A stretch of DNA of 62,207 nt from an uncultured Alphaproteobacteria bacterium (GTDB taxonomy: Bacteria > Pseudomonadota > Alphaproteobacteria > Rs-D84), in NCBI GenBank assembly GCA_944389235.1, contig CALXLO010000004.1, forward strand, positions 1 to 62,207. Direction: 5' to 3'. Positions 18,305-57,167 of this stretch are shown here, one piece after another (the first letter of the stretch is position 1; the number at the start of each line of letters is the position of its first letter). Under the pieces are notes generated by a model, which was not told where the DNA came from, searched no databases, and was given only the letters and a program-made list of their open reading frames with translations. The translations under genes and the position numbers were made by a program.

Positions 18305-20314
18305 ATGAAAGTCTGGGTTAATTATAATGATGCGCGGTGGCGCAAATATAAAATTAATTTTGAAAAAATTGTAAATGCGTCTGTGCGTAATGTTCGCCCC
18401 GATGCCGAGGTTTCAATTACTCTGACCAATGATGCAGAAATAAAAAAAATAAATAAACAATATCGTGATATAGATAAACCAACAAATGTGTTGTCTTTTG
18501 AATTGGGTGATGATGTTTTGTTGGGTGATATTTATATTTCGTTAGATACAGTGATGCGCGAAGCAGAATCTGAAAATATATCTGTGGAAAATCATACCAC
18601 ACACATGGTTGTGCATGGGATGTTGCATTTACAAGGCTATGACCATATTCGCGATGATGATGCAGTTATAATGGAAAATCAGGAAATAAAAATATTAAAA
18701 AAATTACATATCAAAAATCCGTATACGGCGGATTCGTGCACATACAGCGATACTTGTTCTTGCCCAGGCGATAAATTTATTGCATTTTTTAATAAAATAA
18801 AAATTCGTCCAGACGGGTTTTGGCAATATGTCATTATGGCGCTGTGTGGTGCAATCGCGGCATTTGGTTTTGCGCCATTTAATTTGTGGTGGGCAACATT
18901 AATTGCAATTGGCGTGGCGTATTATTTAATGACACGCGGTTATAAAAAATATTCTGTTTTTGGGGCGTGGCTGCGCGCTGCGCCGTTCGGGGCGGCGTAT
19001 GCAATCGCTATGTTTTGGTGGGTTATAAATTCAATATATGTTGTACCAGAACTGGCGGCACAATTTGCAATATGGACAATCCCAGCCTTGATTGGAATCG
19101 GTTTGGTTGGGGCGATAATATTTTCGATACCATTTGTTGTTGTTATGTGTGTGCGCACTGTGCCGGCATGTCGGGCAATTTTGTTTGCTGCGGTGTGGAC
19201 ATTGGTGCTGTGGCTGCGTGAATGGGTGTTTACAGGATTTCCGTGGAATCCAATCGCAAACATTACGATGCCGTTTCCAGAATTGGCAAATTCTATGTCT
19301 GTGTGGGGGGCACTGGGGTTAAGTTTTATAATTGTTGGATTTATTGTATCTGTTGTTGATGTTATTGCACGACGCGGAAAAATGTGTTGGTTCCCGTTTA
19401 TAATATTCTTGTCTTTATTAATCTGTGGGGGATTTATCGGATATAAAAATATTAAATATTCGCAGTGTGATGGCGAAAATTATGGGCCGGTAATTCGTAT
19501 AGTGCAACCAGCACGCAGCGCATCGCAAAAGGCAACACATTCGCGCAGTGATGCAATTCGTAATGCAAATGAAAATGTCCGCGCCATGATTGCGTTGGCA
19601 ACTGCGCCAGGGGCACCAGATTTAATTGTATTTCCGGAAACTTCGTATCCGTTTGTAATAACAGACGGCGATAATATGCCAATTGCGCATATACTAAAAT
19701 CAGATATATTGATTGGTGCAACAACATATTCAGATGGTTTGATGTATAATTCATTAATTTCTGCGTTACCAAGCGGGCAAATTAATCATATATACAGCAA
19801 ATCACACTTGGTGCCGTTTGGTGAATATCGACCGTTTGGTGATATTATTCCAACCCCCGGTCAGTTAACCCCAGGTACAGGACCAGAAATTATGACAATT
19901 AATGGTTTTAATTTTGCGCCGGCAATATGTTATGAGATTGTGTTTTCTGATTCATTGATTCCTGTAAACGAAAATCCGAACGCGATTGTCAATATTACAA
20001 ATGATACTTGGTTTGGTACAACCCCGGGAACATATCAACATCTGGATATGGTGCGCAGATATGCCATAGAATCTGGGGTGCCGATTGTTCGTGCAAATTA
20101 TTCAGGTATCAGTGCTTTTGTTAATTCAGATGGTGAAATTTCGTCTTTTATCCCGGTCGGTGTTTCGGGGTATGCGGATGGCACGGTATGTGGCGCACAT
20201 CTGACGGCATATCGTGCAATTGGCCGCGATGGATGGATGATAATTATATTGCTGTTTTCGTGTATCTGTGTGATGTTTTTGAACTATCGTTGTGAAGAAA
20301 ATAAACCATTATGA
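18305..20314 (+). CDS. in-frame fusion of the rRNA maturation RNase YbeY and apolipoprotein N-acyltransferase Lnt
   Basis: Residues 1-~140 are YbeY (NVLSFE, HGMLHLQGYDH). Residues ~165-669 are Lnt: an 8-TM region plus a nitrilase-like domain (FPETSYPF, KSHLVPFGEY, ICYEIVF). There is no stop codon between them. Confidence 0.85.
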   Translation: MKVWVNYNDARWRKYKINFEKIVNASVRNVRPDAEVSITLTNDAEIKKINKQYRDIDKPTNVLSFELGDDVLLGDIYISLDTVMREAESENISVENHTTHMVVHGMLHLQGYDHIRDDDAVIMENQEIKILKKLHIKNPYTADSCTYSDTCSCPGDKFIAFFNKIKIRPDGFWQYVIMALCGAIAAFGFAPFNLWWATLIAIGVAYYLMTRGYKKYSVFGAWLRAAPFGAAYAIAMFWWVINSIYVVPELAAQFAIWTIPALIGIGLVGAIIFSIPFVVVMCVRTVPACRAILFAAVWTLVLWLREWVFTGFPWNPIANITMPFPELANSMSVWGALGLSFIIVGFIVSVVDVIARRGKMCWFPFIIFLSLLICGGFIGYKNIKYSQCDGENYGPVIRIVQPARSASQKATHSRSDAIRNANENVRAMIALATAPGAPDLIVFPETSYPFVITDGDNMPIAHILKSDILIGATTYSDGLMYNSLISALPSGQINHIYSKSHLVPFGEYRPFGDIIPTPGQLTPGTGPEIMTINGFNFAPAICYEIVFSDSLIPVNENPNAIVNITNDTWFGTTPGTYQHLDMVRRYAIESGVPIVRANYSGISAFVNSDGEISSFIPVGVSGYADGTVCGAHLTAYRAIGRDGWMIIILLFSCICVMFLNYRCEENKPL

Positions 20315-20357: not shown

Positions 20358-20533
20358 GACGCTGAGGGTTTCAGCGTTGGGCTTCATAACCCGTGAACGG
20401 CGTTCCGCGTGGAACGAAAAAACTCCTGCATGGCAAAAAGGCAGGAGAATTGCGTTATATATCGAAGGCGCAATGCTATTCCGTTCAATAGTTATGAATC
20501 TCCTGCCACCGGTAAGTATTTACGGTGGTTTTT
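20358..20533 (+). ncRNA. structured RNA, copy 1 (unassigned class; candidate cis-regulatory leader or riboswitch with intrinsic terminator)
   Basis: Helices P0-P5 plus a terminator, all conserved by compensatory changes with copy 2 at 27637-27812. It ends 20 nt upstream of ATG 20553. Confidence 0.6.
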
Positions 20534-20552: not shown

Positions 20553-21467
20553 ATGCGAATGCGAAATTTGTTGTTTGGTGCCGTATGCATGGCGATATAT
20601 TGTCCAATAAATGCGATTGCTGATGCATCTGTGTGTGAAGAAGAATACAGGACCTGTATGGAACAACAGGGGATGTCTGTGGATGAATATTTTGTTACAG
20701 ATGGTCAAGATGCCGTCTTTTTGGCCGATGCAGAAATGCAAGCGCAACTGGATGAAATAAAAGAAGCATTAACCGGGCGCGATTATCCGTTTGTACAATC
20801 GTTGAATGCGTTACCAATTGAACGACAAATGCGACGCGTACGCGGATATTTGGCGGATAAATCTTTTCAATATTATAAAAATAAATATATGGCGATGTTA
20901 CAAGATGTGTCTGAACTGACAGGGCGGGCAATTAAAACACAAAATACCGATGGACAAGAAATTTCGTGGTTGGACCGGGGACAATTAGATAATATGGATG
21001 TTTGTTATAATTTGTTGGAAAGACAGGCGTGCGACTATCCAGATGGTTTTTTAGAGTTTTCTGTAACACATAATATGCGTGAACCACAATCGTTGTTGGT
21101 GCAAATGGATTCACCAGAAACAAATACGCATTATTCTATATCAATTCAGTTAACTAATGACAGTACGATGGCCTTTTCAAGTGAACTATATGCCCAGTAC
21201 GATAATATCAGATTAAGGGTGATGGCAGAAGAGTATGACTATGATGATTGGTATGTATGGCGTAATCAAGAGGTTGCAGATATTCGTGCCGGAAAATACA
21301 TTCCAATGCCAGACGGTGAACAGCCAGATGAAAATTCACCGTTTGGTGCAATGGCAATAAAAATGGATGATACGCGTGAGTGGGAATCTAATAATCTCCC
21401 CAGTGTGCGCGCCAAGGGCAGAATACGGGAATACAGCGCATCTGATACATCAACATTTGGTCGGTGA
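20553..21467 (+). CDS. secreted hypothetical protein
   Basis: ATG 20553 is preceded by a GGGGGA SD. Signal-peptide-like N-terminus MRMRNLLFGAVCMAIYCPINAIA. I recognise no domain. The longer track ORF would read through the structured RNA. Confidence 0.6.
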   Translation: MRMRNLLFGAVCMAIYCPINAIADASVCEEEYRTCMEQQGMSVDEYFVTDGQDAVFLADAEMQAQLDEIKEALTGRDYPFVQSLNALPIERQMRRVRGYLADKSFQYYKNKYMAMLQDVSELTGRAIKTQNTDGQEISWLDRGQLDNMDVCYNLLERQACDYPDGFLEFSVTHNMREPQSLLVQMDSPETNTHYSISIQLTNDSTMAFSSELYAQYDNIRLRVMAEEYDYDDWYVWRNQEVADIRAGKYIPMPDGEQPDENSPFGAMAIKMDDTREWESNNLPSVRAKGRIREYSASDTSTFGR

Positions 21468-21469
21468 TT

Positions 21470-21714
21470 ATGAATATGAAACATGTAATGTTGCTTTTTT
21501 TCATATTAATTACACCAATTATGGATGCAATGGCAATTGATGCAGTACCCCAAAATCCGTACGCTGATTTATACGATGAAACAGAAATGTTAGAAATTGT
21601 CAGTCTGTTAATTTGCAAACAGGTGGAATAACACTGGGGGTTGGCAGTGTTGGTGGTGCCGTTGGTAATGTATTAATCAATGGACTGGGTGGTAATTCGG
21701 GTACCAATGATTAA
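21470..21714 (+). pseudogene. decayed paralogue of the glycine-zipper protein gene at 33296-34040
   Basis: A 53-codon ORF gives a signal peptide plus AIDAVPQNPYADLYDE (compare AGIDDLDLGNNPYLPIYQK). After a stop, another frame encodes GGITLGVGSVGGAVGNVLINGLGGNSGTND* (compare GGIILGSGVVGGAVGNLIINAGDNPD*). Confidence 0.55.
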
Positions 21715-27542: not shown

Positions 27543-27566
27543 TCTTTTGGATATTCTGAATTGATG

Positions 27567-27597
27567 CCCCGTGGCGTGTCCATGGGGTGTTTTTTTT
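27567..27597 (+). terminator. Rho-independent terminator after the hlyIII-family gene
   Basis: Hairpin ccccgtgg-cgtgt-ccatgggg followed by tg-tttttttt. Confidence 0.75.
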
Positions 27598-27636: not shown

Positions 27637-27812
27637 GACGGCGGGGATTTTCGTCGTTGGGCCTAACTAACCCGTATCTATCGGTGTCAGAAATGACATT
27701 AAACAACCAGCCTGTGGGCAGGCTGGGGTGGTGTGAATATATTGAATAAACACCGCAATTTCCGATAGAATTGTTAGTTAGCCTCCAGCCACCAAAATAT
27801 TTTGGTGGTTTT
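27637..27812 (+). ncRNA. structured RNA, copy 2 (same unassigned class as 20358-20533)
   Basis: Same length and same P0-P5 architecture, with a GAAA tetraloop on P3. Terminator is ccaccaaaatattttggtgg-tttt. It ends 32 nt upstream of ATG 27845. Confidence 0.6.
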
Positions 27813-27844: not shown

Positions 27845-28774
27845 ATGCAATTAAGAAAATTTATCGTAAATATGTTATGTCTGTTTATACCAAACAAAAA
27901 AATCAGACATAAATTGCGCGACAGTTTTTGTAGACCGCGCGTTAGTAAACAAAAATATATAAACATAAAGCAACAATGGAAACAGCACGGAAACGGGGAA
28001 AAATTACTGCCAGCACGGTTTGAAAAATATGACTTGGTCTTTGGTATTGGTGCAATGTGTCATGTCAGAACATATCTGGATATTTTCAAATTGGCACGAT
28101 TTACAACACCGTTTGATTGGACTGCGGGGGCATGGCCATGTAATTTTGATAAAATTCCCGGTATCGGGCGTGACAGCAGATTCCGAGAAAAAATAGAATG
28201 TCTGTATAATGATTTTAATGGATATTATAATCCAGAAGATATGCGTATAGTAAATTTAGCGGTGGCACCAGGAATTGCACATCAACATATTGTAAATATT
28301 AAAACAGGGATTTTTATACCGCATATATTTCCATTTGATGTCAGTATGGAACAATATATGCCAACATTTCGTGAAACAATAAAGCGACGCGCAGATAGAT
28401 TAATTAATGCGATAAAACAGTCGGATAAAATATTGATTGTTTGGATGAATCATGTTTTTGATTACAGAACAATTCATGATTTACCGGTTCCTGATATAGA
28501 TATAATAAACGCTGTTAAGCGGTTAAATAAAAAATTTGCAGGCAAGCAGATAGACTTTGTATTTTTTGAACACGACGGGACTAAAGATAAGTTTGAGTAT
28601 GAAAAACAAGAAGTTGCGCCAGGTGCATACCGTATTTTATCAAATCATTTTTTCTTGGCTTCAGAATATGGATATAAATATAAATTGCCAAGTACACCGT
28701 TCTTTATTCCATCATTATGTATTGCCGAAGCGTTGGATAATATCAGTCTGACTGGGAAAAAGGTTGTCGATTAA
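27845..28774 (+). CDS. DUF1796-like (putative papain-like cysteine peptidase fold) protein, paralogue 1
   Basis: YDLVFGIGAMCHVRTYL...TPFDWT...HIFPFD matches the DUF1796 LGxxC / PFDW / H pattern. N-terminal LRKFIVNMLCLFIPNKKIRHKLR amphipathic motif. Start taken at ATG 27845 by analogy with paralogue 2. Confidence 0.6.
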   Translation: MQLRKFIVNMLCLFIPNKKIRHKLRDSFCRPRVSKQKYINIKQQWKQHGNGEKLLPARFEKYDLVFGIGAMCHVRTYLDIFKLARFTTPFDWTAGAWPCNFDKIPGIGRDSRFREKIECLYNDFNGYYNPEDMRIVNLAVAPGIAHQHIVNIKTGIFIPHIFPFDVSMEQYMPTFRETIKRRADRLINAIKQSDKILIVWMNHVFDYRTIHDLPVPDIDIINAVKRLNKKFAGKQIDFVFFEHDGTKDKFEYEKQEVAPGAYRILSNHFFLASEYGYKYKLPSTPFFIPSLCIAEALDNISLTGKKVVD

Positions 28775-29817
28775 GATTGTTGACATTTTTATTGTTTGAT
28801 GTTAGGAATATTTTGCTAGATTATGTATGAAAGGTAAACAATGAAATTAAGAAAATTTATTGCAAATTTAGTTTGTGTTTTTATACCAACAAGAAAAATT
28901 AGACACAGTGTTCGGTATTCTTTATCTGGACAGAAAAAACGCGATGCAGCAAAGAAAGAATTGGAAAAACAGGCTTATTTGAAACTGAAACAAGAATGGT
29001 TAAAGCACACAGGTGGTCAAAAATTACTGCCAGCACGGTTTGAAAAATATGACTTGGTCTTTGGTATTGGCGCAAATTGCCAAGTTAGAAGGTATTTAGA
29101 TATTTATAAATTAACACAATTTTCAACACCACTGGATTGGACAAATGGCTTACCACCATTGAATTATAAACAAAGTGCTGATTTATATAGAGATACCAAA
29201 TTCAAAGAAAAAATAAATTTTGTATGTAATAATTTTGCCGGATATTACGAGTCACAAGATATGCGACTGTGGGCTGATGATATAGTTTTAGGGCAGATAC
29301 ATCATCAAGTTGTAAATATAAAAACACAAATTACTTTTAGACATATATTTCCAATAGACATCAGTATGGAACAATTCTTGCCACAGTTTTGTGATATAAT
29401 GGCGCGGCGCGCAAAAAGATTAACCAATGCAATAGAAAATTCGGATAAAATATTAATTGTCTGGATGCATCGTGTTTTTGACCATCGTGATTGGGCAGAC
29501 AAACCTGTGCCGGACCAAGATATAAAGAATGCAGTGAAAAAATTAAACAAAAGATTCCCAGGTAAAAAATTTGATTTAGTATTTTTTGAACATGACGGAT
29601 ATAAAGATAAGTTTGAGTATGAAAAACAAGAAGTTGCGCCGGGTGCATACCGTATTTTATCAAATCATTGGTGCACCGCATCAGAATATGGTTATAAATA
29701 TACTTTCTTGAATCTTCCATTTTATACACCATCATTATGCATTGCCGAAGCGTTGGATAATATCAGTTTGACTGGGAAAAAGGTTGTCGATTAAGATTGT
29801 TGACATTTTATAATGTT
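27999..29817 (+). repeat. tandem gene duplication in a 1020-bp register with mosaic identity
   Basis: 27999-28050 equals 29019-29070 (52/52 nt). 28559-28797 is almost identical to 29579-29817, including 20 nt past the stop codon. The interior has diverged strongly. Confidence 0.85.
28841..29794 (+). CDS. DUF1796-like protein, paralogue 2
   Basis: Same architecture: MKLRKFIANLVCVFIPTRKIRHSVR; VFGIGANCQVRRYL; TPLDWT; RHIFPID. The C-terminal ~75 aa are nearly identical to paralogue 1. Confidence 0.6.
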   Translation: MKLRKFIANLVCVFIPTRKIRHSVRYSLSGQKKRDAAKKELEKQAYLKLKQEWLKHTGGQKLLPARFEKYDLVFGIGANCQVRRYLDIYKLTQFSTPLDWTNGLPPLNYKQSADLYRDTKFKEKINFVCNNFAGYYESQDMRLWADDIVLGQIHHQVVNIKTQITFRHIFPIDISMEQFLPQFCDIMARRAKRLTNAIENSDKILIVWMHRVFDHRDWADKPVPDQDIKNAVKKLNKRFPGKKFDLVFFEHDGYKDKFEYEKQEVAPGAYRILSNHWCTASEYGYKYTFLNLPFYTPSLCIAEALDNISLTGKKVVD

Positions 29818-29989
29818 AGTATTATTATTCATGTTATCATGATTAAGTTTAATTGTTTGTTTTTTACAACTGTTATAACAACAACCCCTGCGGGGGTCTA
29901 GGATATATTTATGTTTGCGGTTTGCCGCGTTCAATGTAATAATATAAAACAATTCAACAAAAACAAAAAACAGACAAAGGACTGTTATT

Positions 29990-31723
29990 ATGTCTTATCC
30001 TATTGAAACGATACGCCATTCTTTGGCACATGTTATGGCAGCTGCGGTGCAAAAATTGTACCCAGATGTGAAATTTGCTGGTGGTCCCGCCATAGAAAAC
30101 GGGTTTTATTATGACTTTGATACAGAACATCGGTTTTCCGAAGAAGACTTTGCAAAAATAGAAAAAGAAATGCGCGATTTGATTAAATCAAATGGTAGAT
30201 TTGAACAACGCAATGTGTCGCTGGATGAAGCCAAGCAGATTTTTGCGGGTCAGCCATATAAAATGGAATGGCTGAATGAATATGATGCCGCAGGCGAAGC
30301 GTTATCGATTTATACTTTCCGCGATTTTGTGGATTTATGCCGCGGGCCGCATGTGGAATCATCCAAAGATTTACCGCGTGACGCGTTCAAAATTCGTACT
30401 GTTGCCGGTGCATACTGGAAAGGGGATGCAAAAAATAAAATGCTGCAACGCATTTATGTTGATGCGTTCGCAACCAAAGAAGAACTGGATGAATTTTTGA
30501 AAATGCAGGCCGAAGCCGCCGCCCGTGATAATCGTAAATTGGGCAAAGAAATGGACTTGTTCCATTTTGAACCAGACTATGCGCCGGGCGCAGTGTTTTG
30601 GCATGATAAAGGGTACAAAATTTATCGTAAATTAATTGAATATATCCGTCATCGTCAAGAACGCGCCGGGTATTTAGAAATTTCTACGCCGTCGGTTATG
30701 GACCGTTCGTTGTGGGAACGCAGTGGCCACTGGGCAAAATATGGCGAACACAATTATTCCGGTAAAACACAAGATGGCAAGACTTTCTGCGTGAAACCTA
30801 TGTCGTGCCCAGGGGGAATGCTGGTATTCGGTCAGGGGATTAAATCATACAAAGACTTGCCGTTGTATCTGGCCGAATTTGGCAAGGTTTGTCGCTATGA
30901 AGCCGCAGGCGGCTTGTCTGGTCTGATGCGTGTGCGCGAATTTACCCAAGATGATGCGCATATATTCTGCACCGAAGAACAACTGGAAACCGAAGTTGTA
31001 AAAATATTGCGCTTTATCAAAGATATTTATGGCAAGTTTGGTTTTGACAAGATTTCTATGAAATTGGCAACCAGAAAAGAATCAGAATTTCGTATCGGGT
31101 CTGATGAAATATGGGACAAAGCCGAAGGTGCATTAAAGCATGCGCTGGATGCAAATGGTATCGAATACGAAATTGCACCTGGGGATGCTGCATTTTATGG
31201 ACCAAAAATTGATAACTATCTGAAAGATTCTATGGGGCGCGTGTGGCAGTGTGGTACCGTGCAATTGGATATGAATCTGCCGGAACGGTTCGATTTGTCT
31301 TATATCGGTGAAGACGGTGAAAAACATCGTCCGATTATGCTGCATCGTGCAATGCTGGGGTCTATTGAACGGTTTATGGGAATATTGCTGGAATCAACAG
31401 GTGGTAATTTGCCGTTGTGGTTAAGCCCAGAACCAGTGGTCATAACCTCGATTTCTGAAAAGTATCGCGAATATGCGGTCGAAATAGTTGATAAATTACG
31501 CAATGTTGGCGTGTATGCCCGGGCAGATTTGCGTGATGAAAAGGTTAACTATAAAATCCGTGAATTGTCATTGGCAAAAACGCCTATTATCGCGGTCGTC
31601 GGTGAAAAAGAAATGGCAGACCAGACGATTACTTTGCGACATCTGGGTGTGGAACAGCAAGAAAATGTGCCGTTGGCAGATTTTGTCGCTAAAATGGCAG
31701 ATGCGGTAAAGTTGCCAGATTAG
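29990..31723 (+). CDS. thrS: threonine--tRNA ligase lacking the N-terminal TGS domain
   Basis: 577 aa. It starts directly at the editing domain (IRHSLAHVMAAAV). Class II catalytic core (RDNRKLGKEMDLFHF, FRVREFTQDDAHIF) and an anticodon-binding domain are present. Confidence 0.9.
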   Translation: MSYPIETIRHSLAHVMAAAVQKLYPDVKFAGGPAIENGFYYDFDTEHRFSEEDFAKIEKEMRDLIKSNGRFEQRNVSLDEAKQIFAGQPYKMEWLNEYDAAGEALSIYTFRDFVDLCRGPHVESSKDLPRDAFKIRTVAGAYWKGDAKNKMLQRIYVDAFATKEELDEFLKMQAEAAARDNRKLGKEMDLFHFEPDYAPGAVFWHDKGYKIYRKLIEYIRHRQERAGYLEISTPSVMDRSLWERSGHWAKYGEHNYSGKTQDGKTFCVKPMSCPGGMLVFGQGIKSYKDLPLYLAEFGKVCRYEAAGGLSGLMRVREFTQDDAHIFCTEEQLETEVVKILRFIKDIYGKFGFDKISMKLATRKESEFRIGSDEIWDKAEGALKHALDANGIEYEIAPGDAAFYGPKIDNYLKDSMGRVWQCGTVQLDMNLPERFDLSYIGEDGEKHRPIMLHRAMLGSIERFMGILLESTGGNLPLWLSPEPVVITSISEKYREYAVEIVDKLRNVGVYARADLRDEKVNYKIRELSLAKTPIIAVVGEKEMADQTITLRHLGVEQQENVPLADFVAKMADAVKLPD

Positions 31724-44600: not shown

Positions 44601-44676
44601 TGGTGGGCGCGCAGGGACTCGAACCCTGGACCCACTGATTAAGAGTCAGTTGCTCTACCAACTGAGCTACGCACCC
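44601..44676 (-). tRNA. tRNA-Lys (anticodon CUU), CCA encoded
   Basis: The reverse complement GGGTGCGTAGCTCAGTTGGTAGAGCAACTGACTCTTAATCAGTGGGTCCAGGGTTCGAGTCCCTGCGCGCCCACCA folds into a 76-nt cloverleaf with a 7-bp acceptor stem including one G-U pair. A hairpin plus T-run follows on the minus strand. Confidence 0.95.
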
Positions 44677-47868: not shown

Positions 47869-49170
47869 TTAGTTTTGAATATCGCCGCGTAAAGACGCTT
47901 TATTTGCATCTGTGATTTTTATATGTGCGATTTGCGGTGCAATTTGCGGTGCGATTTTTACAACGCATGGTTGCATGTATGGGGTGCGATATATTGCATA
48001 TTTACCGGTTTTATCGGGACCTTCGTACAGGCAGGATAATGTTTTATTAACACACGATTCGTTAAATTCGCGTTGAATTTCGTTTAACAAAGCATCTAAT
48101 TTATATAACCGTTCGGATTTAATTTTTTCTGGAATTTGATTCGGCATCAGTGCCGCTGCAGTGTGGGGGCGGGGCGAATATTTGAATGAAAATGAATTTA
48201 TATATTTAACGCGACGAACAATATCCAATGTTTGTTCAAAGTCATCATCTGTTTCACCAGGAAAGCCAACAATAAAATCGCTGGATATTTGAATATCTGG
48301 GCGCGCAGATTTTAATTTGTCAACTATATCTATATATAGATTTAACGAATAAGGCCGGTTCATCTTTGTCAATACATTGAGCGAGCCGCTTTGTATAGGC
48401 AAATTCAAAAAAGGCAGTAATTTCTGTTCTGTGCGGAACATTTCTATCAAGTCGTCTGTCATTTCTGTTGGATAGCTGGATGTGAACCGAATGCGTTTTA
48501 TGGCATCTTGTTGTGCTGCGGCGCGAATTAAATCTGACAGGCGATATGACAAGCCGTCCGGTGCGGTATATTTATATCCGTTTACATTTTGTCCCAGAAA
48601 GCATATTTCGCGTGCACCAGTATTGGCAGCGTGTACAACATCGTGTATAACAGAATCAATTGGACGCGATATTTCACGACCGCGTGTATACGGCACTATG
48701 CAGTATGTACAGCAATGATTACAGCCTTCTTGGATTGGGATATATGCAATCAGTGGCGATGTTTCCATTTGCGGCATGGCATCAAATTTTTCCAGTCCGC
48801 CCAGGTCGATATTAAATAAACGAGTGTCAGGATTATCCAAAATTTCTGGTAATTTATGATAACTTTGTGGACCCAAAACAAAATTTAATTCTGGCACACG
48901 ACGAAATGCATCTGCGCCCGATTCGCGTGCGACGCAACCGACAATACCCATAATGGCATCTGGCTTTTTTTCTGTGCGCATACGCCCCAGGGCGCTGAAT
49001 ACTTTGTCCGTTGCTTTGGCGCGAACGGCGCATGTGTTTAATATAATAATGTCAGCATCAGTATAATCATCTGTCTGAATATATCCGCGACCGCGCAACA
49101 TAGACGCAATGCGTTGCCCGTCATAGACATTCATTTGACAACCGAATGTATGAATGAAAAATTTTTTCAT
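47869..49170 (-). CDS. miaB: tRNA-i6A37 methylthiotransferase MiaB
   Basis: MKKFFIHTFGCQMNVYD. Radical-SAM motif CNHCCTYCIVP. C-terminal TRAM domain. Start at ATG 49170. Confidence 0.9.
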   Translation of the reverse strand: MKKFFIHTFGCQMNVYDGQRIASMLRGRGYIQTDDYTDADIIILNTCAVRAKATDKVFSALGRMRTEKKPDAIMGIVGCVARESGADAFRRVPELNFVLGPQSYHKLPEILDNPDTRLFNIDLGGLEKFDAMPQMETSPLIAYIPIQEGCNHCCTYCIVPYTRGREISRPIDSVIHDVVHAANTGAREICFLGQNVNGYKYTAPDGLSYRLSDLIRAAAQQDAIKRIRFTSSYPTEMTDDLIEMFRTEQKLLPFLNLPIQSGSLNVLTKMNRPYSLNLYIDIVDKLKSARPDIQISSDFIVGFPGETDDDFEQTLDIVRRVKYINSFSFKYSPRPHTAAALMPNQIPEKIKSERLYKLDALLNEIQREFNESCVNKTLSCLYEGPDKTGKYAIYRTPYMQPCVVKIAPQIAPQIAHIKITDANKASLRGDIQN

Positions 49171-49177
49171 AATGTCT

Positions 49178-49363
49178 TTATTTTTGCTTTTGTTTTTCTG
49201 CGCGCATGCGCTTGGCTTTAATTGCATATAATGTTTGCATACGCGTGTCCAGTTCGTGTTGTGATAGTATTTTGCATGGCACTTCAACAGGGCCATATTC
49301 AACGCCTGTAATTGGGTCGTCTTTGACGATTGTTATAATGGAAAAAGTTTGTTCGTCTGACAT
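49178..49363 (-). CDS. small hypothetical protein (61 aa)
   Basis: ORF between gatB and miaB with SD AGGGGA 7 nt upstream. Basic C-terminal tail. I recognise no family. Confidence 0.4.
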   Translation of the reverse strand: MSDEQTFSIITIVKDDPITGVEYGPVEVPCKILSQHELDTRMQTLYAIKAKRMRAEKQKQK

Positions 49364-49382
49364 TTTTTATCCCCTATTATTT

Positions 49383-50906
49383 TTATGATAATTTTTTGCG
49401 CAGTATTTCATTTACAACGGCTGGATTTGCTTTGCCACCGGTTGATTTCATAACTGCACCAACAAAGAACCCAAGCAGTCCCGTTTTGCCGGATTTATAT
49501 TGTTCAACCTGGGGTGCGTTTTTGGTGATTACATCATCAATAACCGATTCGATTGCGGCAGTGTCGGTAATTTGCTGCATACCGAATTTTTCAGCAATCG
49601 CGCGTGGGGTGCCTGTTTCGCCATCCAGCATTTTTATAAATATTTCTTTGGCCTGTTTACCGTTGATTGCGTTTTCGGCAATCATATCGACCAATTCAGC
49701 CAAATCAGATGGTGTGATAATCCGCGCTGTGCCGCACTCAGATGTATCCAGCGCGTTTTTTGCATCCCAATTTTCAGGGTGTGCGAACAATTCAGAAATC
49801 ATCCAATTCGCGATGGACTTCGCGCGTTTTGGGTTGTTTCCAACCGCTGCATCAAACCATTTTGATATATCTGTTGTTTCGGTCAGACGCGCGGCATCAT
49901 ATTCAGACAGCCCGAAATCATGCACATAGCGCGCGCGGGTCGCCGCCGGCAGTTCTGGCATGGTACTGCGAATACGTTCAATTGTTTCTTCGCTGATTTC
50001 CAGTGGCAATAAATCTGGATCTGGGAAATAGCGATAATCCAGTGCGTCTTCTTTTTTACGAGCCACAGAAGTTGTTCCGTCTTCTTGATTATAGTGCATC
50101 GTGTCTTGGGACACAGTGCCACCATTTTCATATATTTCGATTTGACGGCGGGCTTCGTATTCGATAGCTGTACGTATAAACTTAAAGGAAACCATATTCT
50201 TTGTTTCCGTTTTTGTACGAAATTCTTTGCTGCCAACTGGGCGTACTGATACATTAACGTCAGAACGCATGGATCCTTCCTCCATATTTGCCTTGGACAC
50301 ACCCAGGGCGCGCGCTATTTCACGAATTTCACGCAGGTAGCGTTCCATTTCATCTGGAGACGATATATAAGATCTGTTATCTGGGTTCTTTGTATCCAGG
50401 TAAGTTATAATTTCTAATAATGCAACCCCTGTACGATTAAAATCTACGAATGATTTTGTTGGATGGATATCGTGTTTTAATTTTGCTGCGTCTTGTTCCA
50501 GGTGTGCGCGTTCGATTAAAATCTTTTTTGGATTGCCATCATCGCCCATAATTTCAACCCAGCCGCGGCCAACAATTGGTGGTTCTTCGACCGGTTGGGA
50601 AATCTGATATCCCTGGGGCAGGTCAGGGTAAAAATATTGTTTGCGGGCAAATTTACTGCGGCGTGATATTTCCGCATTCAGACCCAGTCCCATTTTTATC
50701 GCCTGCTCAACACAGTATTCATTTAATACCGGCAACATGCCCGGCATGGCGACATCAACCATTGAAACCTGGGTATTGGGGGAAATTGACGGGTTATAGT
50801 CCGCGGATGCGCCACTGAACAGTTTGCTGTGGGACAGAACCTCGATATGAGTTTCAAGTCCGATAACCAATTCCCAATCTGTTGTTTTACCCTTTATCGT
50901 AAACAT
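49383..50906 (-). CDS. gatB: Asp/Glu-tRNA amidotransferase subunit B
   Basis: WELVIGLETHIEL-type N-terminus (DWELVIGLETHIEV) and a C-terminal YqeY-like tail. Start at MFTIKGK. The longer track ORF runs antisense through tRNA-Phe. Confidence 0.95.
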   Translation of the reverse strand: MFTIKGKTTDWELVIGLETHIEVLSHSKLFSGASADYNPSISPNTQVSMVDVAMPGMLPVLNEYCVEQAIKMGLGLNAEISRRSKFARKQYFYPDLPQGYQISQPVEEPPIVGRGWVEIMGDDGNPKKILIERAHLEQDAAKLKHDIHPTKSFVDFNRTGVALLEIITYLDTKNPDNRSYISSPDEMERYLREIREIARALGVSKANMEEGSMRSDVNVSVRPVGSKEFRTKTETKNMVSFKFIRTAIEYEARRQIEIYENGGTVSQDTMHYNQEDGTTSVARKKEDALDYRYFPDPDLLPLEISEETIERIRSTMPELPAATRARYVHDFGLSEYDAARLTETTDISKWFDAAVGNNPKRAKSIANWMISELFAHPENWDAKNALDTSECGTARIITPSDLAELVDMIAENAINGKQAKEIFIKMLDGETGTPRAIAEKFGMQQITDTAAIESVIDDVITKNAPQVEQYKSGKTGLLGFFVGAVMKSTGGKANPAVVNEILRKKLS

Positions 50907-50957
50907 TTTTATTTTTCCTTGCTTTTTATGTTTTGGTATCTTATTATTGCTTTCGCT

Positions 50958-51033
50958 GGCCAGATAGCTCAGTTGGTAGAGCAAGGGACTGAAAATCCCT
51001 GTGTCAGTGGTTCGATTCCACTTCTGGCCACCA
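50958..51033 (+). tRNA. tRNA-Phe (anticodon GAA), CCA encoded
   Basis: GGCCAGATAGCTCAGTTGGTAGAGCAAGGGACTGAAAATCCCTGTGTCAGTGGTTCGATTCCACTTCTGGCCACCA folds into a 76-nt cloverleaf. Confidence 0.95.
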
Positions 51034-51037
51034 TTTT

Positions 51038-52504
51038 TTATTTCCCCATTATTTTTGTTGGACGATTATCAATGCCGGCAAATTGTTCTATGTGCTTTGC
51101 CAATTGCATTACACGCATATCGTCAAATTTGCGGCCAACCGTTTGCATGCCCAGTGGCAATCCGTTTTCTGCCAAACCAGCCGGTACACTGCATGCCGGG
51201 ATTCCGGCCAAGTTCATTGCCACCGTGAATAAATCCAACGCATAGTATTCCAATGGTGTTAAGTCTGAATCCAGCGGTAATGCCGTACCGGCACCAGACG
51301 GGCATACAATTAAATCGCATTGTTCAAACGCGCGGTCAAATGCGTCGGCAATCAATCTGCGGACGCGTGCAGCCTGCATAAAATAAACCTCGTACGATTC
51401 GCTGGATAAAACCGCCGTGCCGATAATTAGACGACGTTGAACTTCGGTTCCGAATCCGGCGGCGCGCGTCTTGTTATATGTGTCGATTAAATCAGACCCT
51501 TCTACCCGCAGACCATAACGCATGCCGTCATAGCGCGCCAGATTTGATGAAGCCTCGGCCGGGGCAATGATATAATATGCCGCCAGTGCATCCAGAATAT
51601 TTGGAATAGATACAGGTACGATTTCTGCGCCCAATGATTTTAAGTCTGCGATACGCGCATCAAATATGCGTTTCATATCTGGTGAAATTTCAACATTTTC
51701 AAATTCTTGTATTACACCAATACGCAATTTTTTACCGTCGCCTAAAATTGGTTCCAGCGGTGTATGTGCATGAAATCCGGCATTCGCGCTGGTTGAGTCT
51801 TTATCATCATGACCAGCCATTACGCTTAATAATAACGCCGCATCATCAACAGTGCGCGCAATTGGACCCGGGGTATCCAGACTGGATGCAAATGCAACGC
51901 AACCCCAACGACTGCACAGACCATATGTTGGTTTCATGCCAACCAATCCTGTGATAGATGCAGGAAATCGAATCGAACCGCCGGTGTCTGTACCTGTACC
52001 GCCCATTGCCAATCCAGATGCCACCGCACTGGTTGTGCCACCAGATGAACCGCCAGCCGTTAATTTGCGTTCCAATTGCCATGGATTGACCGGCGCACCA
52101 AAATAACTGGTCTTGCTGAAAGTACCCATCGCAAATTCATCAAGATTGGTTTTGCCAAGTAATACTGTACCAGAATCAATAAATTTTTGCGAAACAGTCG
52201 ATTCGTATTGCGGCACAAAATTTTCCAGCATGTGTGATGCCGCCGTTGTGCGAATGCCGCATGTTGCAAACAAGTCTTTCATACCAATTGGAATGCCATC
52301 CAACGGTAATGGATTGCCCGCCGCATAGCGCGCATCAGCCGCCGCCGCGTCCGCCAAGGCACGTTCTGGGGTTATGGTTATATAACAATTCAAATCCGCA
52401 TTATATTTTTCAATGCGTTCCAAATGTGCACGCGTCAGTTCGGTTGCACTGATGTCGCCAGATTTTAATTTTTCTAGTGCGTTGGTTATTGTTAAATCAA
52501 TCAT
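51038..52504 (-). CDS. gatA: Glu-tRNA(Gln) amidotransferase subunit A
   Basis: Amidase signature GGSSGGTTSAVASG and the catalytic region GTDTGGSIRFPAS. Confidence 0.95.
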   Translation of the reverse strand: MIDLTITNALEKLKSGDISATELTRAHLERIEKYNADLNCYITITPERALADAAAADARYAAGNPLPLDGIPIGMKDLFATCGIRTTAASHMLENFVPQYESTVSQKFIDSGTVLLGKTNLDEFAMGTFSKTSYFGAPVNPWQLERKLTAGGSSGGTTSAVASGLAMGGTGTDTGGSIRFPASITGLVGMKPTYGLCSRWGCVAFASSLDTPGPIARTVDDAALLLSVMAGHDDKDSTSANAGFHAHTPLEPILGDGKKLRIGVIQEFENVEISPDMKRIFDARIADLKSLGAEIVPVSIPNILDALAAYYIIAPAEASSNLARYDGMRYGLRVEGSDLIDTYNKTRAAGFGTEVQRRLIIGTAVLSSESYEVYFMQAARVRRLIADAFDRAFEQCDLIVCPSGAGTALPLDSDLTPLEYYALDLFTVAMNLAGIPACSVPAGLAENGLPLGMQTVGRKFDDMRVMQLAKHIEQFAGIDNRPTKIMGK

Positions 52505-52518
52505 TTCTTTTCACTTTT

Positions 52519-53157
52519 TTAATGTGTTTTCATTTGTTGTAATCTGTGTTCTTGGATGGCGCGTTTTATTATTCCTGGGCGGAACATAGATAATACCCGT
52601 TCATATTCGTTTAATAATTCTTGGCCCCCAGGTATCTGAAAATCATATTCCGACATAAAGCTAATGGCATTAAGGGTCATACAATATAAATTATAATCCA
52701 ACAACAATACATTATATTCTTTTTCCAGAATATCATGCAGGTCAGCAGATTGCCTGGGTATATCGTAATCATAATATGATTTATACATTTGTTGTCGTAT
52801 AAATTTACCATTTTCACCAAGATTTGATGTTTTGCTTAAAACAGTGCCTTCGTGTAATGGTTTGTTAGGACGGGCAATGTTATAGTCAATCAGCATAATT
52901 GCCGCCTTGCGTGCAGAGTTATAGTTCATACGGCGCATAAACTTCAAATGCAATTGACTAATTTCAAATTCGTATTCCCAATTACTATTTGCCACCGGGT
53001 CAGAATTTGTGTGTTTTGAATGAACAAAATTCTGTACACATTTACCATATTTTTGATTTACAGCGGCGACAGATGCATCGTACTGCGTGCGCAATGCAGT
53101 CATATTTTTGTTTATTTCATTTATTTTTTGCATAGCTTTTTGACTAAGTTTTTGCAT
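52519..53157 (-). CDS. hypothetical protein (212 aa) inserted in the gatCAB operon
   Basis: Good SD (AGAGG). No TM segment or signal peptide. I recognise no motif. Confidence 0.55.
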   Translation of the reverse strand: MQKLSQKAMQKINEINKNMTALRTQYDASVAAVNQKYGKCVQNFVHSKHTNSDPVANSNWEYEFEISQLHLKFMRRMNYNSARKAAIMLIDYNIARPNKPLHEGTVLSKTSNLGENGKFIRQQMYKSYYDYDIPRQSADLHDILEKEYNVLLLDYNLYCMTLNAISFMSEYDFQIPGGQELLNEYERVLSMFRPGIIKRAIQEHRLQQMKTH

Positions 53158-53175
53158 GGAAAAACCTCTGTGTAT

Positions 53176-53571
53176 TTATTTTGTTTTTTCTTTATATTTA
53201 TCTGCAAAAAATCTTAGACCGATATTTTTTATAACAAATTCATCGCGACATTTGCCAGTTCTGATGTTTTCCAAGCAACTGTAACGGTCGCATTTGCTGT
53301 CCGCGCCAAGATTATAGTGCACTTGCATAAACGCATTTGCTTTTTTGTCTTGGTATAGGCAATTTTTTGTTATTTCCATAGAATTATCAAATGACTGATG
53401 AACAACTGCGCGTAAATTGGTCAGACAGCAGTCGTCGGGTATATTTGCGTATGTATTAAAAGATTTAATGTATTTTACGGCGTTATCGTATGGTGTTGCA
53501 CCACATGTTACTGCCTTGGCATTACCGGTGTATAAGTCGTGAACAAGTAAAATAGTTGTTTTTTGTGTCAT
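53176..53571 (-). CDS. hypothetical Cys-rich protein (131 aa, 7 Cys) inserted in the gatCAB operon
   Basis: ATG 53571 with SD AAGGGA. An alternative ATG at 53595 overlaps the gatC 3' end (ATGGATGAATAA). Confidence 0.5.
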   Translation of the reverse strand: MTQKTTILLVHDLYTGNAKAVTCGATPYDNAVKYIKSFNTYANIPDDCCLTNLRAVVHQSFDNSMEITKNCLYQDKKANAFMQVHYNLGADSKCDRYSCLENIRTGKCRDEFVIKNIGLRFFADKYKEKTK

Positions 53572-53587
53572 ATCATTATCCCTTTTT

Positions 53588-53881
53588 TTATTCATCCATA
53601 ACCTTGGGCACAGCAAAATATCCACGGGATACCCCAGCGTTATCAGGGTCATTTGCCAAAACTGCGTCGCGGATATTCCCATCCGTTACAACATCCGCGC
53701 GTTGTGGTAATTTATGTTCCGCAGGATTCAGCATAGGTTCAACGCCAGTTGTATCAATTTTTTGCAATTTATCCAGCCATTCTATTACAGAATCTATATT
53801 CATTTTGGCTAATTTTTCGTCTGATATATCAATATGTATCAAGTCCGCAAATTTTTGTAATTGTTGCTTGCTAAATGCCAT
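53588..53881 (-). CDS. gatC: Asp/Glu-tRNA amidotransferase subunit C
   Basis: 97 aa. Pattern ...LAKMNIDSVIEWLDKLQKIDTTGVEPM...LRADVV-like...FAVPKV. Confidence 0.9.
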   Translation of the reverse strand: MAFSKQQLQKFADLIHIDISDEKLAKMNIDSVIEWLDKLQKIDTTGVEPMLNPAEHKLPQRADVVTDGNIRDAVLANDPDNAGVSRGYFAVPKVMDE

Positions 53882-53933
53882 GTCGTATCCTATTCTGTTT
53901 ATATGTTATTAAAACAACAGGAAAAATTATACA

Positions 53934-54386
53934 ATGATTTTGTCTGATTTCAAGGCTTTTCCGCGCGCAGGACGCATAATGGGAATTGATTGGGGCGCAC
54001 ATCGTACTGGGGTGGCTGTATCAGACACATCGCGTGAATTTGTTTTTACGCGCCCTGTGATTTTGTCTGGGCGGGGTGGGGCATCAATTGCGCAACAAAT
54101 TGCTGATTTGGCACGCGCAGAAAAAGTTGTTGGAATTGTTTTTGGGTTGCCGCTGCATGCCGATGGAACAGAATCTGATGCATCAGAATCTGTACGCGCG
54201 TGTGCCGCAGAATTATGCACATACATTGATTTGCCAATTTGTTTTATTGATGAAACATTAACCAGCCGCATTGCACAAGATAATATGGGGCGGGTGCGTG
54301 TGTCAGATATAAAACAAAATTTAGATTCTGAATCCGCACGCGTTATCTTGGATAATGCAATCGCAATAATTCGTCGGTTAAAATAG
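53934..54386 (+). CDS. ruvX: YqgF/RuvX-family putative pre-16S rRNA nuclease / Holliday junction resolvase
   Basis: IMGIDWGAHRTGVAVSD...VVGIVFGLPLHADGTES...DETLTS. Confidence 0.9.
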   Translation: MILSDFKAFPRAGRIMGIDWGAHRTGVAVSDTSREFVFTRPVILSGRGGASIAQQIADLARAEKVVGIVFGLPLHADGTESDASESVRACAAELCTYIDLPICFIDETLTSRIAQDNMGRVRVSDIKQNLDSESARVILDNAIAIIRRLK

Positions 54387-54421
54387 CAAAAATGCCAGAA
54401 TCTGTGTATATAGCACAGTTG

Positions 54422-55477
54422 TTATTCTGCGTCTTCTTCGCGTTTGTCTGGAATTTTACCATCGGCTGATAATAAAACAGCAATCCAACGCGTTGAATCA
54501 AATTGTGCAGTGATAATGAATATCGCGACCAATAACGGCACACTGAAAAACATGCCTGCAACACCCCAAATCATGCCCCAAAATACCAAGTTTATTAATA
54601 TTGCCAAGGTTGACAGGTTTAATGTTTTTCCGGTGAATTTTGGTTCCAGGATATTTCCAAATATTACTTGTAATCCAATCAGCCCAATTGCCGTTAATAT
54701 CGGTTGTTGTAATGATGGCGCGGTAACCAAAGAATATAATATCGGTAATGTACATGCAACAATTGCACCAATTGTTGGAATATAGCTGGTGATAAATACA
54801 ATAAATGCCCATATCCCAGCAAATTCAACACCAATCATTTGCAACCAGAAATATGATAAAACACCTGTGATTGCGGATAAAACTGTTTTCATAAACAGAT
54901 ATTTTTTCATGTTGTCATCGATGCTATCAACAATAAAACGCGCTTTTTTATATTCTTTTTTGTTCGGAATCAAAGCCGAGAATTTTTTATTAAATGTGCT
55001 TTGTTCCACGAACAAGAATATCATATAAACAATTATCATGCCGGTTGATGTTACAATGTTTGCGACAGATGCGCCGACATTTGTTGCGATATTTGCAATA
55101 TTTGGCAGCATGCGCGCATCAAATGTTATACCCAATGATGACGATAGGTAATTGCCAAATTTTATAAATTGTTGTTGCAAGCCCGGCAGAGCAGTAACCA
55201 GTTCATGATACATTGGTCGGATTTGTGTCGCCAAGAAATATATCAGACCGCACATTACCAATACCGCTAATATATTAGATGTCCAATCAAATGCCCGGGC
55301 TGCCACGGGTCGTGATTTTCGGTCTGTGTCATTATTAAATGGAAATATTTTTCTGCAATATGTTGCAATTGCATTTATCAGGTACCATAAAAAAGTCGCA
55401 ACCAACAGCGGTATTAAAATTGACCGCCCCAACCACAAGAAAAAAACGATTACGATTGCTAAAATTATTCCATTCAT
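54422..55477 (-). CDS. AI-2E (PerM/UPF0118) family transporter
   Basis: 8-TM profile. The FGNILEPKFTGKTLNLSTLAILINLVFWGMIWGVAGMFFSVPL motif is typical of the family. Start at MNGIILAI with SD AGAGG. Confidence 0.8.
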   Translation of the reverse strand: MNGIILAIVIVFFLWLGRSILIPLLVATFLWYLINAIATYCRKIFPFNNDTDRKSRPVAARAFDWTSNILAVLVMCGLIYFLATQIRPMYHELVTALPGLQQQFIKFGNYLSSSLGITFDARMLPNIANIATNVGASVANIVTSTGMIIVYMIFLFVEQSTFNKKFSALIPNKKEYKKARFIVDSIDDNMKKYLFMKTVLSAITGVLSYFWLQMIGVEFAGIWAFIVFITSYIPTIGAIVACTLPILYSLVTAPSLQQPILTAIGLIGLQVIFGNILEPKFTGKTLNLSTLAILINLVFWGMIWGVAGMFFSVPLLVAIFIITAQFDSTRWIAVLLSADGKIPDKREEDAE

Positions 55478-55526
55478 TATTTGACCTCTATGCCTTGTAT
55501 ACATCTATCCAGCGCGTTTTTTGTTA

Positions 55527-56444
55527 TTAATTTATTACGCCGGAAACATCGCTGATGTTTACCATCACATCTGGCGCAGTTTGACCATAATGTATTGTAA
55601 ATAATATAATTGCGCCAATAACCAATGCCATATTAACAGCAATTGTGAACCATATATATTTTTTATTAATATCGCGCAGGAACGCAGGCACCCCGACAAT
55701 ACGCATCCATAACCCAGCGATAATCGCCAATATTAATGTTAATAGTATTGCGTTATATCCAAAAAACATACATGAAATTAATACAATAACTACAAAAGAT
55801 GCAGCTGTGCGCACAGAACCAGATAAAATCCAGTCTGTCAATTTAGCGTACCAATTTGTGCGTATGTTCAGTGCACGCGGTGTTTTTGCATCATCAGAAA
55901 TCAAATAACCTGGTATCCACAACAATGAAAAAGCCATTGGCATTGTGCAAATAATTTGCCATGTTTTTAACCCCAGTGCACGGCACCGCCAAAACTTTGC
56001 CCAGATGTTTGACAAGAATAAACCACACAAGTACAAGTAAAATATTGCCCCAATTGCCATAAGAATTATGAATGATATATTGGAATGCGTTTCCATCATC
56101 ATCAGATAAAACATAATTTTATTTGCGTTTGCAAAAATCAACATCGTAGATATCGTGAACGCCAATGATACTATGAACAGTTGTGCGTTATTCAGTGCAA
56201 CAAAACTGCGCTGGTCCAGTTGGGTGCGCGGCATTTTGTACAGAACTATTACCGCAGCAATTACAAACATAGCTACCAATAATGCCGTCATCAATGTGTT
56301 TGGCATTATGCCATCAAATACAGTTTGCGATAATATACCAGATATAAAACCAATTAAAACAAATAATACAAATGCTATTAACGCAAATTTCAGCGGATGC
56401 CATAAAACCAAAGATAACATAGATAGTGATTTTTTATTTGCCAT
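55527..56444 (-). CDS. polytopic membrane protein of unknown function
   Basis: 305 aa with about 8 hydrophobic helices. Lies between sufC and the AI-2E gene on the same strand. Confidence 0.55.
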   Translation of the reverse strand: MANKKSLSMLSLVLWHPLKFALIAFVLFVLIGFISGILSQTVFDGIMPNTLMTALLVAMFVIAAVIVLYKMPRTQLDQRSFVALNNAQLFIVSLAFTISTMLIFANANKIMFYLMMMETHSNISFIILMAIGAIFYLYLCGLFLSNIWAKFWRCRALGLKTWQIICTMPMAFSLLWIPGYLISDDAKTPRALNIRTNWYAKLTDWILSGSVRTAASFVVIVLISCMFFGYNAILLTLILAIIAGLWMRIVGVPAFLRDINKKYIWFTIAVNMALVIGAIILFTIHYGQTAPDVMVNISDVSGVIN

Positions 56445-56468
56445 GTTTTGTCCTTTGCTGTTTGTGCT

Positions 56469-57155: not shown

Positions 57156-57167
57156 ACCTTGGTATTT

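Follow-up and report, generated by a model that had tools for sequence, protein, structure and literature searches.

The stretch of DNA analysed here (the window, 62,207 nucleotides from an uncultured alphaproteobacterium) carries two segments of 176 nt each, both on the forward strand, for which a structured RNA had been proposed. Both are real and lie where the original prediction put them, copy 1 at 20358–20533 and copy 2 at 27637–27812. Their surroundings are as follows.

18305..20314, + strand: a single 669-aa ORF in which the endoribonuclease YbeY is fused to apolipoprotein N-acyltransferase Lnt (PF02130, PF20154, PF00795)
20358..20533, + strand: copy 1, whole leader RNA from the putative 5′ end to the T-tract (fold, model R2)
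20553..21467, + strand: gene downstream of copy 1, 304 aa, signal-peptide-like N-terminus (ORF, homologue comparison)
21472..21633: 53-aa ORF behind the 304-aa gene
27563..27591, + strand: strong intrinsic terminator (12-bp stem, T8) after hlyIII
27637..27812, + strand: copy 2, whole leader RNA (fold, model R2)
27845..28774, + strand: first gene downstream of copy 2, 309 aa, DUF1796-like (domain search)
28841..29794, + strand: second gene downstream of copy 2, a 317-aa paralogue of the first (domain search)
~29800..29990, + strand: conserved 5′ region of thrS
44604..44676, − strand, and 50958..51030, + strand: tRNA genes

The T-tract of copy 1 ends 17–20 nt before the ATG of the 304-aa ORF at 20553. 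The family of this protein has a signal peptide and strongly conserved motifs; the protein has no match in Pfam or NCBIfam, and its AlphaFold model (pLDDT 78) matches no PDB fold at E ≤ 0.001. The two genes behind copy 2 stand in tandem and their products are 61% identical. The 309-aa family is weakly DUF1796-like (9 of 20 members match), and here too the AlphaFold model (pLDDT 86) finds no PDB fold at E ≤ 0.001. The 304-aa and 309-aa families show no mutual similarity. Since the downstream genes come without known function or fold, no guess at a ligand can be drawn from them.

Several other features of the window deserve mention. The fusion of YbeY with Lnt recurs in relatives, all 120 related MAG proteins listed (59–99% identity) having the same three domains in one protein. 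The terminator at 27563–27591 lies just upstream of the promoter region of copy 2 and insulates this leader from upstream transcription. Positions 28001–30000, which span the tandem 309-aa and 317-aa paralogues, have a GC content of 33% versus about 42% elsewhere in the window, and this suggests that the stretch behind copy 2 is horizontally acquired cargo. The 5′ region of thrS is conserved between the window and a relative (L121, 18425–18608) and contains a promoter-like TTGACAT and the hairpin acaaCCCCtgcGGGGgt; it has no Rfam match at the gathering threshold and may act as leader or operator of thrS. Most of the window has a GC skew of +0.1 to +0.27, which goes down to about 0 or slightly negative at 48000–58000, a drop that may reflect a block of opposite-strand genes or a rearrangement.

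Two copies of one RNA fold

When the two segments were folded singly, both returned the architecture that had been predicted for them. Copy 1 has a minimum free energy (MFE) of −70.1 kcal/mol (z = −5.59) and copy 2 of −75.8 kcal/mol (z = −7.81), and in both cases none of 200 dinucleotide shuffles was as good. From 5′ to 3′ the RNA consists of the P0 hairpin, UGGGC, P1, an internal loop with ACCCGU, P2, P3, P4, P5, the C-rich tail CUCCNGCC and an intrinsic terminator, and in both copies P3, P4 and P5 meet in a four-way junction that P1 and P2 close. The parts of copy 1, all on the + strand, are these.

20358..20378: P0, 8-bp 5′ hairpin with a GNGUU-type loop (fold; family covariation)
20379..20382: conserved GGGC, in the family GGGG, GGGC or GAGG (fold, RNAalifold)
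20383..20498: sensor domain (fold, family alignment)
20383–20390 with 20491–20498: P1
20394–20400 with 20481–20487: P2
20401–20406 with 20411–20416: P3
20423–20429 with 20441–20447: P4
20440..20448: P4 3′ arm GGCAGGAGA, proposed 5′ strand of an antiterminator (pairing search)
20449–20456 with 20467–20474: P5
20499..20507: tail UCUCCUGCC, candidate 3′ strand of the antiterminator, overlapping the terminator 5′ arm at 20505–20507
20505..20533: intrinsic terminator, stem 20505–20511 with 20523–20529, then the T-tract

Those of copy 2, likewise on the + strand, are the following.

27664..27780: sensor domain (fold)
27664–27671 with 27773–27780: P1
27677–27684 with 27762–27769: P2
27685–27689 with 27694–27698: P3
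27707–27714 with 27719–27726: P4
27721..27728: candidate 5′ strand of the antiterminator, GGCUGGGG, that is, the P4 3′ arm plus 2 nt (pairing search)
27728–27734 with 27750–27756: P5
27783..27790: tail CUCCAGCC, candidate 3′ strand of the antiterminator, overlapping the terminator stem from 27787
27787..27812: intrinsic terminator, 10-bp stem and T-tract (fold, terminator scan)

With regard to the helices first described, the architecture stands, while P2 has to be corrected to 7–8 bp stacked directly on P3. The conserved UGGGC is present as described, and to this we add that it may lengthen P1 by pairing with CUC of the tail (P1a). In copy 1 the GGGC can pair either with the tail CUC at 20500–20502 (P1a) or with CCC at 20390–20392 (a helix that we call H1). 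At the 3′ end both copies have a GC-containing stem-loop followed at once by a U-tract, and this intrinsic terminator is conserved across the family. The terminator of copy 2 is picked up by a consensus terminator scan; in copy 1 the loop of 11 nt, above the 8-nt limit of the scan, sits on a 7-bp stem followed by UUUUU.

It had also been claimed that the copies keep their helix positions with little primary sequence in common, and we agree. In a sequence alignment 93 of 178 columns are invariant, and in the MAFFT alignment the structures of the two copies fall out of register, with 8 pairs in common, a sign of how little the helices have in common at the sequence level. The blocks that the copies do have in common are genuine (CGTTGGGC, TAACCCGT, ATATATYGAA, CTCCNGCCACC, GGTGGTTTT); combined into one pattern they match the window at these two places only, where 0 matches are expected. 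The covariance model, run over the window with filters off, also returns exactly two copies, and in its rebuilt form (R2, see below) it scores copy 1 at 130 bits (E ~1e−30) and copy 2 at 165 bits.

A family tied to two kinds of gene

Relatives of the RNA were reached via the flanking proteins, in related assemblies labelled "MAG: Alphaproteobacteria bacterium". The upstream YbeY-Lnt fusion has many homologues at 60–70% identity, the named ones again being "MAG: Alphaproteobacteria bacterium", and the homologues of the 304-aa and 309-aa proteins fall into 32 and 27 clusters, respectively. An alignment of the two copies padded with N remained gapped, and gap-filled, partly chimeric versions of the two copies were therefore used to seed a first model, R1, which served as a search tool only; R2 was then rebuilt from real sequences. 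About ten clearly distinct homologous RNAs were recovered, at the following loci (L numbers denote loci of relatives).

After tmk: L123, L125, L128
After tatA: L134, L137, L138 and L121 (the L121 copy is clipped by the locus end)
Same species as the window, both copies at both window sites: L141, L142
Between hlyIII and thrS: L145, L148
Upstream of a homologue of the 304-aa family: L136, a divergent 236-nt form (32.9 bits, filters off)

No further copies were found elsewhere in the ~390 kb of related DNA searched. An R2 match at L123 4175–4337 (19.5 bits) was set aside as probably spurious, having a similar score on both strands and none of the motifs; it falls in a 700-nt intergenic region (L123 4124–4824) between accD/A and cysS that also holds a tRNA-like sequence. 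The pattern GTTGGGCN{6,12}CCGTN{90,120}CTCCNGCCACC gave at least 118 loci in the genome collection, and the 40 of lowest GC among those listed, which we read, were coding or Kelch-repeat-like, lacked terminators and included no family member. A stricter 25-base pattern, which scarcely covers the divergent members, had one chance match in the JGI metagenomes, in a GC-rich ORF, and no exact consensus of the window type. A pattern scan of viral contigs and blastn against plasmids and phages returned no match. As far as seen, within the related DNA examined, the distribution of the RNA is narrow.

Covariation was counted on the R2 alignment A7 (14 distinct rows), which is fitted to the model structure and so leans towards it. 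In A7 96.3% of pair cells are standard pairs, versus 35–52% when the partners are slid by 1–3 columns, and 45 of the 55 pairs change on both sides, values that none of 500 shuffles reaches. Each helix from P0 to P5 has 6–9 pairs with compensatory changes, all 9 P0 pairs covary, and the terminator stem is mostly invariant across the family. Two checks are independent of the fit: the MFE structure of each distinct sequence on its own has the same architecture (hereafter fold T), and RNAalifold arrives at the same consensus with a covariation term of −15 kcal/mol, P1 being lengthened by GGG:CUC here too. The original statement that every helix covaries, made from two copies, thus holds in the family; homologues exist and they keep all the helices. 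Nucleotides are conserved in J1/2 (ACCCGU), J3/4, J5/2 and the P5 loop (GAAUA...GAAUAA), and the RNA therefore combines, as a riboswitch does, a structured domain with covarying helices and conserved junction nucleotides.

The class was originally left unassigned, and so it stays. Rfam 15 (4227 covariance models) has no match to the RNA at gathering thresholds and finds in the window only the two tRNAs, located elsewhere; at E ≤ 10 the two copies and four relatives give low, mutually inconsistent chance matches, none common to members. In the literature we found no prior description of this RNA. We conclude that both segments truly belong to a family of folded leader RNAs that had not been catalogued before and that occurs in uncultured Alphaproteobacteria of the gut.

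That the RNA is the leader of the gene behind it, as first suggested, is now backed by strict linkage to two gene families. It lies directly upstream of the gene in 6 of 6 examined 304-aa clusters, at three chromosomal sites (after ybeY-lnt, tmk and tatA), and in 3 of 3 examined 309-aa clusters. Taken together, 9 of 9 clusters from two unrelated families have it in the same-strand 5′ UTR, in four chromosomal contexts, and riboswitches too are same-strand 5′ UTR elements found in more than one context. Relatives without the RNA at these sites are also without the gene: in L120, L121 and L122 ybeY-lnt runs straight into the next conserved gene, and in L121 hlyIII runs straight into the thrS leader, with neither the RNA nor its gene in between. 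All members have a −10-like hexamer, often TAAAAT, 5–7 nt before P0, and a Shine-Dalgarno sequence (SD) and ATG follow the T-tract by 15–35 nt. Such a gap leaves no space for a separate promoter, from which we infer that the downstream genes are expressed by read-through of the leader terminator. The strict gene linkage strengthens the leader reading, and the covarying antiterminator pairing described below, which was not part of the first description, strengthens it further.

The RNA and the 304-aa gene form a module that occupies three sites in relatives, after tmk in L123–L133, after tatA in L121, L134 and L137–L140, and after ybeY-lnt in the window, L141 and L142. The module usually includes a second uncharacterised gene of 229–257 aa, which in the window has shrunk to the 53-aa ORF at 21472–21633. 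In public gene calls the ORFs behind the RNA reach back into it, with 345–358 aa in place of 304 (window, 20409/20430–21467; L141, 1551–2627), and the call at L148 10001–10984 also starts inside it. An exact-sequence lookup of the 304-aa ORF came back empty because callers annotate the longer ORF. A conserved upstream ORF or leader peptide was considered as well and rejected: short ORFs follow the SD-like P4 3′ arm in some members, with neither frame nor stop conserved.

A second fold between tail and P4

The tail, NCUCCWRCC, finds its best upstream partner in the P4 3′ arm in 11 of 11 distinct sequences, and in 10 of these the duplex runs uninterrupted for 8–9 bp. The P4 5′ arm, the P4 3′ arm and the tail change in a coordinated way (UG/CA, AG/CU, AA/UU, CCGA/UCGG), as the members show.

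Copy 1, L137, L128: P4 5′ arm CUCCUGC; P4 3′ arm GGCAGGAG; tail CUCCUGCC
Copy 2: P4 5′ arm CCAGCCUG; P4 3′ arm GGCUGGGG; tail CUCCAGCC
L123, L121, L134, L145, L148: P4 5′ arm (C)CUCAACC; P4 3′ arm GGUUGG(G/A)G; tail CUCCAACC
L136: P4 5′ arm CCCUGAC; P4 3′ arm GUCGGGG; tail CCCCGACC

In 9 of the 11 this antiterminator (AT) duplex is at least as stable as P4. Its last 3–4 nt are the first nucleotides of the terminator 5′ arm; since the tail, besides pairing with the P4 3′ arm, extends into the base of the terminator stem, P4, AT and terminator are mutually exclusive, so that in computation the expression platform excludes part of the sensor, the arrangement known from riboswitches. It should be noted that the tail and the P4 arms are partly conserved in sequence (CUCC/GGAG), and real covariation is therefore confined to about three positions. 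Non-cognate tails, when cross-paired, still form 6–9 of 9 pairs, and shuffled tails give a weak control in some members.

With AT imposed, each of the 9 sequences tested folds into one and the same three-way junction, made up of AT, P5 and a further helix, H3 (in copy 1, 20475–20480 with 20487–20492), which pairs J5/2 with J2/1 around the P2 3′ arm; H1 pairs GGG with CCC around the P1 5′ arm. On a sequence-only alignment H3 is paired in 94% of cases, versus 29–59% when slid, and one of its pairs splits evenly into 4 A-U and 4 U-A. H1 is supported by a single compensatory event, in L134. Nearest-neighbour energies put fold T ahead of the nested AT fold by 12–23 kcal/mol, so that read-through would need kinetics or a strong effector. 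The AT helix takes only 3–4 bp from the terminator stem, and on steric grounds it should not be able to coexist with intact P1 and P2.

What the RNA may do, and the alternatives

The reading that we consider probable is that of a cis-acting 5′ leader of about 170–190 nt, riboswitch- or attenuator-like, which would control read-through of its own terminator into the next gene. Of this, the analysis shows the two folds with their covariation, the shared stretch of tail and terminator, and the tie to the genes; the 5′ end, termination and read-through, and the effector are putative. Transcription would start at the base of P0, with the −10-like box just upstream. The sensor domain would be made next, with P1 and P2 closing the P3/P4/P5 four-way junction. 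In fold T the two arms of P4 would pair with each other, P1a would keep the tail bound to the 5′ GGGG, and the terminator would form and presumably stop the polymerase. In fold AT the P4 3′ arm would instead capture the tail NCUCCWRCC, taking with it the bottom 3–4 nt of the terminator stem, and RNA polymerase would read through; H1 and H3 would complete this fold into the alternative AT/P5/H3 junction. A putative effector bound to one of the two junctions would set the winning fold, and most likely this would be a small molecule or ion that stabilises the four-way junction and acts as an OFF switch. More specifically, and only as a tentative proposal built on the modelled folds, the family may be a new riboswitch class that is fully bistable, both the four-way-junction terminator fold and the AT/P5/H3 read-through fold being kept by covariation, and that controls lineage-specific secreted or surface-related proteins.

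Comparison with known systems places the RNA as a new class of a known kind, attenuator- or riboswitch-like with a terminator platform. With terminator riboswitches, above all four-way-junction aptamers such as SAM-I (RF00162), it shares the cis position in the 5′ leader, a junction of several helices in which the joining nucleotides are conserved while the stems vary and covary, a terminator directly downstream whose 5′ arm can in part pair with an aptamer strand, and an aptamer-plus-terminator fold that is the thermodynamic minimum. It differs in that neither SAM-I nor any other model of Rfam 15 matches it in sequence or structure, in that it switches through the 3′ arm of P4, an internal hairpin, and not through the P1 3′ strand, in an alternative fold with its own covarying helices (H3, possibly H1), and in its genes, which encode uncharacterised secreted and DUF1796-like proteins. 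Three mutually exclusive pairings are also found in PyrR and T-box attenuators; here the P4 5′ arm would be the anti-antiterminator, the P4 3′ arm with the tail the antiterminator, and the tail with the downstream strand the terminator. However, this RNA shows no PyrR-binding loop, specifier loop, T-box sequence or Rfam match, its antiterminator would enclose about 60 nt (P5 and H3) in place of a simple hairpin, and no cognate protein or tRNA was identified. As for the T-box in particular, RF00230 does not match even at E ≤ 10, and the genes that follow the RNA have no relation to aminoacyl-tRNA.

An attenuator that depends on a protein or an RNA has to be taken seriously as a rival, even if we hold it to be rather unlikely. 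The leader would be the same, and its effector would be a protein (antiterminator or RNA-binding) or a second RNA (sRNA, tRNA, even the 30S anti-SD) that binds the P4 5′ arm, the tail or the P5 loop and thereby decides between P4 and the antiterminator. The lead of fold T over AT, at the values given, exceeds what most metabolites can supply, and the regulated genes are not metabolic. The tandem GAAUA...GAAUAA of the P5 loop, split by an inserted hairpin in L134, has the look of a binding site in two parts. Moreover, the tail and the P4 5′ arm are anti-SD-like (CCUCC) and the P4 3′ arm is SD-like. Yet no gene for an RNA-binding protein is consistently linked in the loci examined, and multi-helix junctions whose nucleotides are conserved occur more typically in metabolite aptamers. 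With respect to an RNA effector, the W and R positions of the tail differ between the two copies of one genome, and therefore one trans RNA of fixed sequence cannot pair with both.

A free-standing sRNA and the RNA of a mobile element are both unlikely, since the RNA is strictly linked to genes, mobile-element enzymes are lacking, and searches of phage, plasmid and viral collections came back empty. Were the terminated 170–190 nt transcript itself the product, a stable trans-acting sRNA (a CCUCC anti-SD regulator or a protein sponge) with read-through incidental or part of a dual function, its own −10-like box and strong terminator, its very stable compact fold and a C-rich tail whose CCUCC recalls the seeds of certain sRNAs of Alphaproteobacteria would all fit. 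Alphaproteobacterial anti-SD sRNAs of the alpha-r14/15 'cuckoo' or CcsR type carry CCUCCUCCC motifs in the hairpin loops of small two- or three-hairpin RNAs. Occurrence in Alphaproteobacteria, a Rho-independent terminator, a C-rich CCUCC motif and several copies are common to them and our RNA; here, in contrast, CCUCC is an internally paired linker and the RNA a four-way-junction leader tied to a downstream gene, and no Rfam model matches it. The idea seems improbable to us: position and orientation are strictly linked to two gene families whose genes start 15–35 nt past the T-tract, with no promoter space, gains and losses of the RNA go with those of the gene, both predicted folds have the CCUCC tail in a helix, and the two copies of one genome differ at nearly every helix position, unlike paralogous sRNAs with one seed. 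We give still less credit to the RNA as the structured end of a mobile cassette or repeat (MITE-like, an integron-like site, or the guide RNA of a transposon nuclease or recombinase) that marks inserted DNA. The modules of RNA and gene are indeed present or absent as units at syntenic sites, the 304-aa module occurs at three different chromosomal sites, and the cargo of copy 2 is low in GC relative to the window. But the copies differ by compensatory changes and not by repeat decay, the RNA is found only in front of two gene families, phage, plasmid and viral collections give no match, and a simple alignment of filled versus empty sites, a weak test, shows no terminal repeats or obvious duplication. 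Adjacent ORFs carry no transposase, integrase, reverse transcriptase or nuclease domain, nor any Pfam or NCBIfam domain of the systems that use an IS110 bridge RNA, an IscB/TnpB omega/reRNA or a retron msr-msd, and the downstream proteins have no structural match to a recombinase, nuclease or reverse transcriptase at E ≤ 0.001. The earlier argument against a recent repeat or MITE is borne out by two copies in 62 kb with just over half of their columns in common, by their compensatory differences and by the place of all copies upstream of two gene families.

Of the readings weighed, that of a leader controlling its own terminator is the best. The conserved alternative fold is a clean model for two-state RNA design, and the covariance model would correct ORF annotation in these MAGs (345 or 358 aa to 304). 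Should the RNA be a switch that senses a ligand, a lineage without cultured representatives would contribute an orphan riboswitch class, and there would be a first functional handle on two protein families without known fold or domain, the signal of the RNA being what these proteins respond to. The bistable riboswitch, if true, would point to a signal that these organisms sense in the gut.
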